DNA from: Escherichia coli
Lineage (GTDB): Bacteria; Pseudomonadota; Gammaproteobacteria; Enterobacterales; Enterobacteriaceae
NCBI RefSeq assembly: GCF_044647545.1
Contig: NZ_CP172818.1
Direction: 5' to 3' (one strand)
DNA length: 64,000 nucleotides
This document shows, one piece after another, positions 6,993 through 19,346 of this stretch; position 1 is the first letter of the stretch; every line of letters starts with the position of its first letter. The position numbers and the translations under genes are program-made. The notes beneath the pieces were generated by a model, which made no database searches, was not told the DNA's origin, and saw nothing but the letters and a program-made list of their open reading frames with translations.

Positions 6993-7036
6993 GAATGGTT
7001 CAAAATTGCAAAAATTTTGAACCATTCCAGTTTTCA
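6993..7036 (+). terminator. Rho-independent terminator after yqeG
   Basis: Near-perfect inverted repeat gaatggttcaaaatt / aattttgaaccattc separated by gcaaa, followed by cagttttcat T-run. Confidence 0.7.
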
Positions 7037-7441
7037 TAATGTTCATTTGTTATTATTCCGCTCTATCACTTCTCTCGTCATATCCTAGTATTATCAGTTA
7101 GTTAAACAAACAAAGAGATCTGAACATCTTAAATAAGACTATTTAAGATGCATAACTTAGATTCGCAAGATATCTTCTGGTCATTCAAAAACAATTTGCG
7201 ATATAGATATTCTTATACCATGAGATAGTTATCTGGACCGCTCTCAACCATGCAAGATTAAATCAGTGAAACATAATCATATTTGATAACGAGAAATGCA
7301 TTTTTAAATGCCTTACTCAGAATTATAGCAAATACAGATTAATCGCAATTTTTCCCGGCAAAATTACAAAATCATGGTGTATTGACATCATCAATAACCA
7401 ATGAAATTATGCAATTATATACGGATAGGGAGGTTCTTAAC

Positions 7442-8074
7442 ATGGGGCTTTGTAGTCGTTATAAAAGTCTTACATGCAATAGTTGCTCAATGCATTGCCA
7501 AATAATGCCAGAAGAGTCACCGCGTTTGCAGTATTGCGCAAACTCGTGTTTTTGTATGTGGCCCGAAGAAAGTTCATATTTTAATCGTGGTGTGGTGGAA
7601 GGTATCTTAACAAAAAACCACAATGCGAGATTAAGCGGATATATTTTTGTCGATTTTTCAGTAAGCTTTTTACGTCTATTCCTTGAAAAAGACTGGATTG
7701 ACTATCTTGCAAGTACTGACATGGGGATTGTTTTAGTCAGCGACCGAAATATGCAATCGTTAGCTAACTACTGGCGAAAACACAACTCTGCAATATCTGC
7801 TGTCATATATAATGATGATGGTCTTGATGTTGCCAATGAAAAGATCAGACAACTATTTATTGGTCGTTATTTATCATTTACCAGAGGGAACACATTAACT
7901 CAGATGGAATTCACCATAATGGGATATATGGTTTCTGGTTATAATCCATATCAGATTGCTGAAGTTCTGGATATGGATATCCGTAGCATCTACGCGTACA
8001 AGCAACGAATCGAAAAGAGAATGGGTGGTAAAATCAACGAGTTATTTATTCGTTCACATTCGGTCCAACATTGA
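7442..8074 (+). CDS. yqeH: LuxR-family HTH transcriptional regulator (ETT2 island)
   Basis: ORF 7382..8074 begins with TTG; the better start is ATG at 7442, preceded by a GGGAGG Shine-Dalgarno. C-terminal LuxR-type HTH (TQMEFTIMGYMVSGYNPYQIAEVLDMDIRSIYAYKQRIEKRMG). AT-rich codon usage. Confidence 0.8.
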   Translation: MGLCSRYKSLTCNSCSMHCQIMPEESPRLQYCANSCFCMWPEESSYFNRGVVEGILTKNHNARLSGYIFVDFSVSFLRLFLEKDWIDYLASTDMGIVLVSDRNMQSLANYWRKHNSAISAVIYNDDGLDVANEKIRQLFIGRYLSFTRGNTLTQMEFTIMGYMVSGYNPYQIAEVLDMDIRSIYAYKQRIEKRMGGKINELFIRSHSVQH

Positions 8075-8407
8075 TACTCAACAATCTGCCAGAATCATAC
8101 TCTGCTTATACGGGCATCTATTGAAATGCCCGTATTTTACAAATAAGCAGTAACCCCAAGAGTAAATAACATGGTATTTAAAACCATCATACGAAAAATT
8201 CAGAAGCATTACGAAATATGAATTTACAAACAATAGTGGCATAAATGTTAATCATGTTAATTTACGTAAAGTTTTACGTTGCGACATTAAAGCGTCATTT
8301 CAATCATTATGATAAATATAAAATTAATATATATTTATGTCGTAAATACCAATATACTTAGCAAACTATGTGATTTCCATTTCGATTGATTTAGTGTCTA
8401 TTGACGT

Positions 8408-9217
8408 ATGTACTGGATTATTAACGATAATATCGAGTTCTGGCCTGAGCACCGAAAATTAATATCGGTACATAACGCCGATCTTAACGTCGTTCTGACA
8501 ACGCCAGCCAGTCGTTGTTTATCACTTCTACTTGAAGCTTTTCCTGATGTGGTTGCACAACAAGATTTTTTCACCAGAGTCTGGGAAGAAGAAGGTATGC
8601 GTGTGCCAACTAACACGTTATATCAGAACATATCCATTATCAGACGCGGATTTCGCGCTGTTGGTGATACCACCCACTCGCTTATTGCAACCGTGCCGAG
8701 AAGAGGATTCAAGATTCATAATGACATTAACATACAAAATCATGCAATAAACTCTTCAACAGACGCACATACACACAATGCCCCACCTGCCGTAAAAGGT
8801 AATGCGGGGTACAAAGAGAGCATTGGTGGCGCAAACAATTTCAATAACAAAATCCTCAAACATATAAAAAGTTATCTAATTATGTTGAGCATATTTGCTA
8901 TAGGCGTATATTCTGCACATTGGCTATGGAATAATAATCAACCGAAGCCATTCTTCAAGGATTACAAGACTGTTGCGGAAATTAATGGCTGCCATTTTAA
9001 TGTGACAGAAGATACAATTGATGGGTTGAAAGAGTTCGATAAATATAAGACACGGATACTGGATTCGGGGATTAACTGTAAAAAATATCCGTGGTTATAC
9101 TTCCCTCTTGCAAAATCCTCACCAGGGATGATTGTTATGGCATGCAATAAAAACTATAACCAACATGAAGTGGCAGGCTGTTTAACCCTGTCTTACCGTG
9201 AGGCTAATCGTGATTGA
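8408..9217 (+). CDS. yqeI: ToxR/MarT-like membrane-anchored winged-helix (OmpR/PhoB-type) transcriptional regulator
   Basis: 269 aa ORF; N-terminal region resembles a trans_reg_C DNA-binding domain (YQNISIIRRGF...IATVPRRGFKI), followed by one predicted TM helix (IMLSIFAIGVYSAHWLW) and a C-terminal domain. Confidence 0.8.
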   Translation: MYWIINDNIEFWPEHRKLISVHNADLNVVLTTPASRCLSLLLEAFPDVVAQQDFFTRVWEEEGMRVPTNTLYQNISIIRRGFRAVGDTTHSLIATVPRRGFKIHNDINIQNHAINSSTDAHTHNAPPAVKGNAGYKESIGGANNFNNKILKHIKSYLIMLSIFAIGVYSAHWLWNNNQPKPFFKDYKTVAEINGCHFNVTEDTIDGLKEFDKYKTRILDSGINCKKYPWLYFPLAKSSPGMIVMACNKNYNQHEVAGCLTLSYREANRD

Positions 9218-9632
9218 TTATAAAAAAAACTTATTATTTATTTTAGTTTTTATCAGTGGGTTTATTCTCTTCATTGTTTACTCTTATACTGCAGAAAAAA
9301 TGATATATAATGAAACATGCACTGCAAATTGGGTAATTTTTAATGACAAGGGGCGAGCAAATCTTACCATCGACTTTATGTATAACCAAAAAAATAAAAC
9401 AGGAACTGTTGCGTTGAGCGGAACCTGGCAACAAGGTAACAGAGAAAGTAAGTCAATACGGCGAAATATTGAATACACATGGATTGAAAACTATGACACA
9501 GCCCATTTAACATCAAAGAAAGTTAATAAATTTGAGATCATGGATCAAGTCGATGATGATAGACTTGCAGAACTTATTCCTGATTTTTATGTCTTTCCAG
9601 AAAAAAGTGTAAGCTATAATATACTAAAGTAA
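9198..9632 (+). CDS. yqeJ: Small membrane-anchored protein overlapping the 3' end of yqeI (possible ToxS/FidL-like partner)
   Basis: 144 aa ORF from GTG at 9198, overlapping yqeI by 20 nt; N-terminal TM helix (LLFILVFISGFILFIVYSY). Start codon uncertain (alternative ATG downstream). Confidence 0.6.
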   Translation: MRLIVIDYKKNLLFILVFISGFILFIVYSYTAEKMIYNETCTANWVIFNDKGRANLTIDFMYNQKNKTGTVALSGTWQQGNRESKSIRRNIEYTWIENYDTAHLTSKKVNKFEIMDQVDDDRLAELIPDFYVFPEKSVSYNILK

Positions 9633-17410: not shown

Positions 17411-17733
17411 TTTTTTGCCCGTCCATATTCAACGGCTTCTTTGAGGAGTTCATTTTCCATCGTTTTCTTGCCGAGCAGGCGCTGGAGTTCTTTAATCTGC
17501 TTCATGGCGGCAGCAAGTTCAGAGGCAGGAACAACCTGTTCTCCGGCGGCGACAGCAGTAAGACTTCCTTCCTGGTATTGCTTACGCCAGAGAAATAACT
17601 GGCTGGCTGCTACACCATGTTGCCGGGCAACGAGGGAGACCGTCATCCCCGGTTCAAAGCTCTGCTGAACAATTGCGATCTTTTCCTGTGTGGTACGCCG
17701 TCTGCGTTTCTCCGGCCCTAAGACATCAATCAT
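17368..17733 (-). CDS. insC: IS2 OrfA (HTH DNA-binding protein)
   Basis: Start [18 protein letters not shown]... at 17733; overlaps insD in the -1 frame as in IS3-family elements. Confidence 0.9.
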
Positions 17734-17824
17734 CTGTTCTCCAATGACTAGTCTAAAAACTAGTATTAAGACTATCACTTATTTAAGTGATATTGGTTGT
17801 CTGGAGATTCAGGGGGCCAGTCTA

Positions 17825-19003
17825 AACTTGCTCTTTTCTTCTGGTATTTATCTTTGAAAGATTTGCAGGATAAATAACATTAAGTAAAGCCGCATCGGCT
17901 TCTCTGTAATGTTTATCTTTTTCCAGATAACCTGGGGATTCTCCCCCTAAATCAAGCTGTAACGTTATTCTTTCATAACCTTTATCTATGAGGTGGTTCA
18001 ACCTCGTTGTTGAAAAAGTTGCATCCAGTTCATTGGCTTTAGCTTCGCGTAGTAAATCAGAGACAAAAACAGAGTCTTTCTTCGAGAGTAGGTTTGACAA
18101 ACGTTCCAGTCCAGAGGTCACCAGTGCAACGGAAGATGTGTTTAATCGGGCATCTTCTTCCCACGCTCCGGAATCTTCCATAATATAGAAATTGGCTTCA
18201 TCCAGATAAGCAATCAGCAGCGCAACCGATTTTAATCGGTCACCTTTTTGCCAATCTTCAGCGTTAATAGTACCAGTGTCGATTGCTTGTATAAGGAGAT
18301 CAAGATAAAGACCTAACGCATCATTTTGTTTATGGTTCCACAGCTGCGGCTTGCCTTCTTCCTGCACATCTGCCATCACGGGGGAGTTGCTGTCAAATCG
18401 GATATGTACAGCATTCATTTGCCCAGGAATACCATCCAGTCGTTTTGGGTTGCTAATGACGTCCTGCATCCGCTTAATCTGGTCGGGCGTAGACATATAA
18501 TCCCACAGAGTGAGCAGAACCTTTTTTGCGGCTACACTATTTCCCTGATCTGATACTAATGCCATATAGCCCCATAAACTATCCCTCAGCCAGACAGCAT
18601 CATAGTGGGTTTCTGCCGCTGTTTTGTCATCTTCGAAAGTAGAAGCAAGAATAAATGTTCCCCAGGGTTTCTCCGTCAACGTTAACTTTCGTGTATTTTC
18701 TGTTAATGTTAACAATCCTTGAATTTCGTCTTTGGTATAGTGGCTCTTTATTTCATTTTTTAATTTGGCTGAGTGAATCAGAAGACGATAATTAGGATAC
18801 TTATCTGGATTTAACGATAAATAACTTTTATCAGTTGCTGCCCCCGTGGAATTAAGAATGTTAAATACAGATTCACTCGTCACTTCTGCCCCTGTCGCCT
18901 GGCATGTGCCGCACGAAAATATACCAGCGAGCAGAAGAGTTAATGTAGATTTCCCTTTCATAAAAGATTCCATCAATCGTTTGTTAAAAGCGTAGATAAC
19001 CAC
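17825..19003 (-). CDS. ygeQ: ETT2-associated putative exported protein, 3' end interrupted by IS2
   Basis: 393 aa ORF whose stop codon (17822-17824) lies inside the IS2 terminal repeat, so the native C-terminus is missing; N-terminal signal-like segment (MKGKSTLTLLLAGIFSCGTCQA). Confidence 0.6.
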
Positions 19004-19194
19004 TTATTTAACAACTTGAAAATAAGGTATTTTACCTGGGTTGTTACAAAAGGATTGCATTGCGTAAACGCTTTTTATTTACAAAAAAATGGGGAAGTGT
19101 TACAGCGATTGCGAAAAGTCTGAAGCAATTGAATTAAGATAATATAGAAAGTCAGATACAGCAAAAATGGCAGGTTGATGAGGTGAAGATAAAT

Positions 19195-19268
19195 TGGAGC
19201 GGGCGAAGGGAATCGAACCCTCGTATAGAGCTTGGGAAGCTCTCGTTCTACCATTGAACTACGCCCGC
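19195..19268 (-). tRNA. glyU: tRNA-Gly (CCC anticodon)
   Basis: Reverse complement reads gcgggcgtagttcaatggtagaacgagagcttcccaagctctatacgagggttcgattcccttcgcccgctcca, with T-arm GGTTCGATTCC, anticodon loop cttCCCaag and encoded CCA. Confidence 0.93.
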
Positions 19269-19346
19269 TTCGAGATGCGTAAGGCATTATAAACCTTACG
19301 CTCTCCTTAGCAAGTACCGCGCTGCTGACTGCTGATTAATTCGCCA

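Follow-up and report, generated by a model that had tools for sequence, protein, structure and literature searches.

What has become of the secretion machine that an Escherichia coli genomic island once encoded, and does its absence from a finished genome sequence report an event in the life of the strain? [quoted passage not shown] A copy of the insertion sequence IS2 stands there in place of the 16,944-bp core that encodes the type III secretion system (T3SS), and cuts both ygeO and ygeQ. Our comparison suggests, with a probability that we put at roughly 0.8, that this deletion and the IS2 were carried over from a K-12 template used in assembly. The features concerned are:

7157..19044 (11,888 bp), no strand: ETT2 island; homology to the empty site of strain E2348/69 reaches to 7156 and starts again at 19045
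16095..16493, minus strand: ygeO, OrgA/MxiK family, 5' end cut by IS2; matches positions 60-185 of 185 of model TIGR02555 with 152 bits (cut-off 118.6)
16494..17824, minus strand: IS2, complete, 1,331 bp, with insC/insD; shows 100% identity to K-12's copy at the locus and no target-site duplication
17825..18961, minus strand: ygeQ, glycoside hydrolase family 15 (GH15), first 379 of 536 codons, cut by IS2, as seen by comparison with the full-length gene

The insertion sequence is recognized as IS2 by its TnpA and TnpB products, which reach 276 and 728 bits against the NCBIfam models, both over the cut-off, and its ends read TGGATTTGCCCC... and ...GGGGGCCAGTCTA. A 5-bp target-site duplication was not found at its flanks (TTTAT and AACTT), which fits a deletion junction and not a simple insertion. 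The extent of the loss follows from alignment to the near-complete ETT2 locus of IMT16316 (NZ_CP023815.1), a genome of the sequence type 648 (ST648) kind: identity is 99.94% over 11187-16493 and 99.98% over 17825-35571, and 16,944 bp of IMT16316 are absent between these two blocks, with no alignment of that core anywhere in the 64-kb window. The missing segment comprises the 5' end of orgA, eprK/J/I/H (SctJ, SctI, needle, PrgH), the regulator gene etrA and a small open reading frame (ORF), epaS/R/Q/P/O (SctU/T/S/R/Q), eivJ/I, eivC (ATPase), eivA (SctV), eivE (gatekeeper), eivG (secretin), eivF, a GhoT/OrtT-like gene and the last 157 codons of the GH15 gene. The genes for SctC, SctV/R/S/T/U, SctN, SctD/SctJ and SctF/SctI, which form the core of a functional injectisome, are absent from the window, so that no injectisome can be encoded at the locus; judged by its gene content, it cannot build a secretion apparatus. 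An earlier note on this DNA had described a degenerate island with no needle, export apparatus or ATPase gene, and had suggested alignment to an intact ETT2 locus to define what is missing. It was right about the absence, and the alignment supplied the list of epr, epa and eiv genes. The IS2 that marks the deletion is absent from its account, and the deletion, which it had taken as part of the island's own history, is present in the window but is probably not biological in the source strain, since K-12 junctions stand here in a non-K-12 background.

This mismatch is the first line of evidence. The ETT2 remnant of K-12 MG1655 (yqeH-ygeO/IS2/ygeQ, by glyU) shares with the window the gene order, an identical IS2 and the truncation points of the OrgA-like and GH15 genes, and both IS2 junctions of the window are those of K-12 to the base, whereas the adjoining island DNA differs from K-12 by 5-7%. 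The two loci differ also in that ygeF, pbl, ygeK and ygeN are intact in the window only, and in that the window has an extra 210 bp (garbled) and 78 bp. The window is 99.94-99.99% identical to IMT16316 over all sequence that the two share, but only 95-98% identical to K-12, and over 40000-48000 it is 100% identical to ST648-type genomes. With the ST648-type ETT2 (IMT16316 and the Logan contig ERR3831990_24) it shares this near-identity everywhere outside IS2 and a poly-A tract described below, together with the small indels relative to K-12; in contrast to the window, these genomes have the 16.9-kb core, a full GH15 gene, no IS2 at this place and normal sequence at 10442-10597.

Megablast searches with the 3.3-kb junction region and with each junction separately were carried out against 5,426 complete E. 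coli genomes. The K-12 junctions were found in 350-369 of them (363 and 369 for the single sites, 350 with both), with laboratory strains of K-12 as the best matches (96.0-98.8% identity), and an IS2 junction in the window's allele was carried by none. An exact scan of GTDB representative genomes and of JGI metagenomes did not find the junction pattern, and a gene-index look-up returned no exact match on record to the IS2-chimeric YgeO protein. Two contigs encoding a GH15 protein truncated to 379 aa were considered and rejected, as they hold partial genes at contig ends, in which the next bases are 'ct' and 'cg' and not the 'ta' of IS2.

In a rival reading the deletion is real and independent: IS2 would have struck the very two nucleotides that it hit in the K-12 lineage, both being strong IS2 targets. 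IS2 is common in E. coli, another copy lies elsewhere in the ETT2 of strain 30COLEC, and the lack of a target-site duplication is what is expected of an IS-mediated deletion. However, an independent origin requires two identical end points, no record among the 5,426 genomes that has either junction is a closer match than the K-12 strains, and a single IS2 insertion at either site is hardly seen there (363 and 369 genomes versus the 350 with both). The deletion could instead be real and imported, by homologous recombination from a K-12-like donor, or its flanks could later have been converted to the local allele. E. coli recombines frequently, and the K-12-like ETT2 allele exists both with the deletion (K-12) and without it (30COLEC). 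However, the SNPs (single-nucleotide polymorphisms) of the ST648 type start 15 bp to the left and 21 bp to the right of IS2, so that a donor tract could extend past IS2 by at most 14 bp to the left and 21 bp to the right; homology of this length is below the normal need of RecA-dependent exchange, which counts against an import.

The nearest natural relatives speak in the same direction, as they carry an intact core. The ERR4505541 sequence equals the window at 100% over 15448-16493, and for ERR3831990 the differences over 7478-16493 are confined to the poly-A tract, a single A-run and a single SNP. The YgeN substitution at 16005 is private to the window with respect to IMT16316, and the exact YgeN protein is found on Logan contigs of both ERR3831990 and ERR4505541. 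In the contigs of both, the sequence past the junction goes on with intact orgA-prgK/J/I/H-etrA, followed by export-gate genes of the epa group, with the longer ERR3831990 contig reaching through epaO, and in ERR3831990 all core genes examined (about half of the core) were called as intact ORFs. On the far side of the deletion, the full-length GH15 allele is present in 5,925 index blocks, with the GhoT-like gene next to it in six of the six places shown; five of these six loci extend further, and all five also carry eivF, eivG, eivE, eivA and eivC. The organism that supplied the SNPs of the window was thus probably of the ST648 type, close to IMT16316, with the ETT2 core present.

As a side observation, epaO/SctQ (315 aa) and eivJ/SpaN (291 aa), both broken in IMT16316, are apparently uninterrupted in the 101-kb Logan contig ERR3831990_24. 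This suggests that some members of the ERR3831990 lineage may carry a fully intact ETT2.

The second line of evidence comes from the other places in the window where K-12 and the ST648-type genomes differ in structure. Counting differences of more than 50 bp, there are five such sites (n=5), in which REP denotes repetitive extragenic palindromic sequence:

Site a, 10390-10599: 210 bp absent from K-12; IMT16316 sequence at the start, then base-by-base decay to poly-A
10442..10597, within site a: anomalous poly-A tract, 156 bp, intergenic between yqeK and ygeF, ST648-type sequence decaying
Site b: ETT2 core / IS2; K-12 form in the window
Site c, 19104-19181: 78 bp absent from K-12; correct in the window
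Site d, 32605: K-12-only REP segment, excised with a 2-bp scar (deletion versus IMT16316)
Site e, 62358: K-12-only REP segment, excised with a 1-bp scar (deletion versus IMT16316)

Four of the five sites carry anomalies unique to the window, and the ETT2 core is the only K-12/ST648 structural difference above 1 kb in its 64 kb. In the poly-A tract, G, C and T are changed to A and small deletions accumulate until the sequence passes into long A runs, to recover exactly where homology to K-12 resumes. There are 69 differences from IMT16316 in 1-12186, all of which, except one homopolymer indel, fall within 10442-10597, and the tract occurs in no other genome examined, ERR3831990 being normal there. 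The scars at 32605 and 62358 lie exactly at the borders of the K-12-specific REP segments, and both variants are absent from the 5,426 complete genomes (best matches 97.6% and 98.8%, respectively). Outside the structural sites, the window departs from IMT16316 by four substitutions and the length of one A-run (11323). Leakage of K-12 SNPs into the window was ruled out, as all four substitutions are private, two to the window and two to IMT16316.

A recurrent IS2 event would leave the poly-A tract and the scars at the REP borders unexplained, and an imported allele explains neither; we therefore consider the independent deletion very unlikely, and the import less likely still. A consensus that followed a K-12 template, e.g. 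in polishing or in reference-guided assembly with ST648-type reads, would explain all anomalies together. Such templating would correct the SNPs and small indels, would recover the 78-bp insertion and only partly the 210-bp one, would excise the K-12-only segments imprecisely, and would miss the 17-kb insertion and leave the template's IS2 in its place. Taken together, the K-12 junctions, the poly-A tract, the scars at the REP borders and the presence of the core in the relatives make a K-12-templated artefact the most likely reading.

Several points weigh against this preferred reading. The 78-bp ST648-specific insertion (19104-19181) is perfect and no K-12 SNPs are found in the flanks, which implies that any templating must have been very effectively corrected. 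The case for an artefact is built on the finished sequence. Natural indels and sequencing errors are both frequent at REP boundaries and in A-rich DNA. Finally, the collections searched hold a part of the E. coli genomes and not all of them.

The identity of the island itself is a separate matter. We are confident that 7157-19044 corresponds to the E. coli ETT2 remnant known from the literature, in which the regulators are kept and the secretion machine is gone; this is supported by the family matches, the synteny, the GC content and the comparison with the empty site, and no evidence against it was found. ETT2 has been described as an island of low GC content and some 29.9 kb in length, present in most E. 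coli outside phylogroup B2 and subject to widespread mutational attrition (PMC3977695, PMC11068852, PMC7058095), located beside glyU, with a GC content of 36.9% against 50.8% for the chromosome (PMC3977695, PMC11068852). The island edges in the window were set by alignment to the empty yqeG-glyU site of the B2 strain E2348/69, which has no ETT2 and in which the two genes are only 315 bp apart. In the window, yqeG lies at 5753-6982, followed by a 15-pair terminator-like hairpin (6993-7027) and by the island, whose right edge and the 3' end of the landmark tRNA gene are 150 bp apart, placing it at the chromosomal position of ETT2:

19195..19268, minus strand: glyU, tRNA-Gly(CCC), found by ARAGORN and Rfam; chromosomal landmark adjoining the island

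The GC content is 36.1% over 7000-19270 versus 50.5% outside, in line with the low GC of ETT2. It falls to 33.1% over 7157-16493, the left 9.3 kb of the island, while the left and right flanks have 47.6% and 50.8%. In a sliding profile, all 34 one-kb windows inside this trough are at or below 37.6%, and the 201 windows outside have a mean of 50.5% (sd 3.3) and a minimum of 39.7%. The trough ends at 16493; IS2 (16494-17824) has 53% and the region of the GH15 remnant (17825-19044) 40.8%. The earlier note, which had proposed a sliding GC profile as a check, was therefore correct that the DNA is far more AT-rich than both flanks, that its composition is not uniform, and that the island adjoins a tRNA-Gly gene, but not that the AT-rich stretch reaches glyU. 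Its assignment to the ETT2 of the literature agrees with position, GC content, synteny and the content of genes resembling those of SPI-1, the pathogenicity island 1 of Salmonella: the locus is 99.9% identical at the nucleotide level to IMT16316 and 95% to K-12 and 30COLEC, with equal gene order, and includes HilA-, SicA-, IagB-, OrgA- and OrgB-like genes.

That the AT-rich block could be ancestral DNA lost from B2 strains, instead of an acquired island, deserves consideration, as the empty site of E2348/69 alone cannot separate loss from never having gained. Moreover, ORF analysis and family scans of 7157-19044 revealed no integrase gene, and the island junctions showed no direct repeat derived from the tRNA, so that the locus does not qualify as a classical integrative island with flanking att sites. 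However, the GC content is 17 points under that of the flanks and the genes are SPI-1/Mxi-Spa homologues, both of which argue against ancestral DNA, as does the reading, given in the passage of PMC7058095 that summarises Ren et al. 2004, of the distribution as a gain of ETT2 after the divergence of B2. We therefore regard the ancestral origin as unlikely. In the surrounding region (5000-21000) glyU was the sole Rfam match, and promoter-like sites were not enriched (53 versus 48.4 +/- 7.4 in shuffled sequence).

Besides ygeO and ygeQ, the following genes are retained in the island, with families assigned by NCBIfam and Pfam scans:

7442..8074, plus strand: yqeH, LuxR-type (EcpR/MatA-like) regulator, 210 aa; NF047921 EcpR, E 1.7e-20, under the curated cut-off; named yqeH in relatives
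8408..9217, plus strand: yqeI, ToxR/CadC-like membrane-anchored winged-helix regulator, 269 aa; Pfam Trans_reg_C at residues 28-102, E 4e-9
9210..9632, plus strand: yqeJ, 140 aa, no assigned function; no NCBIfam match; PF27292 YqeJ_C on the homologue of identical length in Logan ERR3831990_24
9841..10266, minus strand: yqeK, 141 aa, no assigned function; no NCBIfam match; named yqeK in relatives
10670..11161, plus strand: ygeF, 163 aa, intact, frameshifted in K-12; no Pfam or NCBIfam match
11398..11889, plus strand: ygeG, class II T3SS (translocator) chaperone of the SicA/LcrH/SycD family with tetratricopeptide (TPR) repeats; NF011859 SicA, E 3.6e-36; TIGR02552, E 1.8e-22
12224..13600, plus strand: ygeH, HilA-family regulator, 458 aa; NF008870 YgeH, 1056.6 bits (cut-off 800)
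13768..13986, plus strand: ygeI, 72 aa, no assigned function; no NCBIfam match; named ygeI in relatives
14070..14573, plus strand: pbl, IagB-like lytic transglycosylase, 167 aa, intact, frameshifted in K-12; NF011856 IagB, E 1.3e-36
14591..15223, minus strand: ygeK (EtrB), NarL/SsrB-type response regulator, 210 aa, intact; PRK15369, E 6.9e-40 (best NCBIfam model)
15446..16153, minus strand: ygeN, OrgB-like (SctL-type linker), full length, 235 aa, frameshifted in K-12; NF011850 OrgB, E 2.6e-15

These matches bear out what the earlier note had said of the ORFs, namely that they include four regulators (yqeH, yqeI, ygeH, ygeK), a class II chaperone (ygeG, E 4e-36 when rounded), an IagB-like enzyme (pbl, E 1e-36) and OrgA/OrgB-like proteins (ygeO/ygeN, 152 bits and E 3e-15), and that homology to ETT2/SPI-1 families can be found in a search. 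Its word "remnants" holds for the truncated ygeO but not for ygeN, which is intact here, as are ygeK, pbl and ygeF. The ORFs of ygeF, pbl, ygeK and ygeN are uninterrupted in both the window and IMT16316, and all four genes are annotated as pseudogenes in K-12, ygeK because of an internal stop. With the Salmonella SPI-1 (hilA-iagB, sicA, prgHIJK-orgAB, inv/spa), the locus shares the resemblance of YgeH, Pbl, YgeG, YgeO and YgeN to HilA, IagB, SicA, OrgA and OrgB, respectively. The scores are all under the SPI-1 equivalog cut-offs, indicating paralogous members of these families, and, unlike SPI-1, the locus has no machine genes, translocators or effectors. The ETT2 of 30COLEC differs in a separate site-specific-integrase element between the GH15 gene and glyU (L001 23700-27572) and in an IS2 at another place inside ETT2, and the window lacks both features. 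Upstream of ygeG, the poly-A run (11311-11323) varies in length, being longer than in the window by one in IMT16316 and by six in ERR3831990; the tract may be prone to slippage, or the variation may be an artefact of sequencing.

Two of the regulators merit comment. YqeI has an OmpR/ToxR-type winged helix at the N-terminus, followed in the translation by the hydrophobic stretch LIMLSIFAIGVYSAHWLW, which is the ToxR/CadC arrangement, and it also matches CadC in NCBIfam (E 3e-4). In YgeK, the Pfam GerE domain is clear (E 8e-21) and the Response_reg match is weak (E 3e-7), the receiver domain being degenerate. In a BLASTP alignment, taken here as a lead, a Gly falls opposite the phospho-acceptor Asp59 of NarL, so that YgeK may be an orphan regulator that works independently of phosphorylation. 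The island has no sensor kinase gene, which the Gly, if real, would fit. At 15210, in codon 5 of ygeK, the window has a private A where IMT16316, K-12 and ERR3831990 have T, and its exact YgeK protein has no record in the public gene index; the substitution may be a real SNP of the strain or a consensus error.

What the locus could still do would be mainly transcriptional, as far as data from other strains can be transferred. YgeH of enteroaggregative E. coli 042 is an activator of the ETT2 operons and can take the place of HilA in Salmonella; the ygeH promoter is bound by H-NS, which silences the island (PMC4210603). EtrB/YgeK modulates expression of the LEE (locus of enterocyte effacement) in enterohemorrhagic E. 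coli (reviewed in PMC11068852), and YgeK and YqeI influence flagella and virulence in avian pathogenic E. coli (PMC8614350, PMC7552227). By analogy, it is most likely that the AT-rich island DNA would be silenced by H-NS and that the regulators YgeH, YgeK/EtrB and YqeI, once derepressed, would act in trans on loci such as flagella, LEE and surface genes. A finding that weighs against such a regulatory role is that YgeH of O157 was reported to be non-functional (PMC4210603), so that YgeH activity is not to be assumed from sequence.

Descriptions of ETT2 and of the remnant in K-12 go back to 2001-2004, and work on what its regulators do is under way. The biology of the remnant is thus already known and not novel, and the new point of our analysis is a data-quality flag on the deletion. 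It may be put to use elsewhere, as template-derived structure leaves a reusable signature, in which IS junctions identical to those of the reference stand in a foreign SNP background, and garbled sequence and small scars mark the exact places of structural difference from the reference. A survey in which the presence, absence or "attrition" of ETT2 is scored from this assembly would probably log a false deletion. It is improbable that the K-12 IS2 deletion junction is truly present in an ST648-type chromosome. If it were, a 16.9-kb deletion allele would have moved between distant lineages on at most some 20 bp of homology per side, or would have arisen twice at identical nucleotides through site-specific action of IS2, and either would amount to a recurrent, directed route of ETT2 inactivation.

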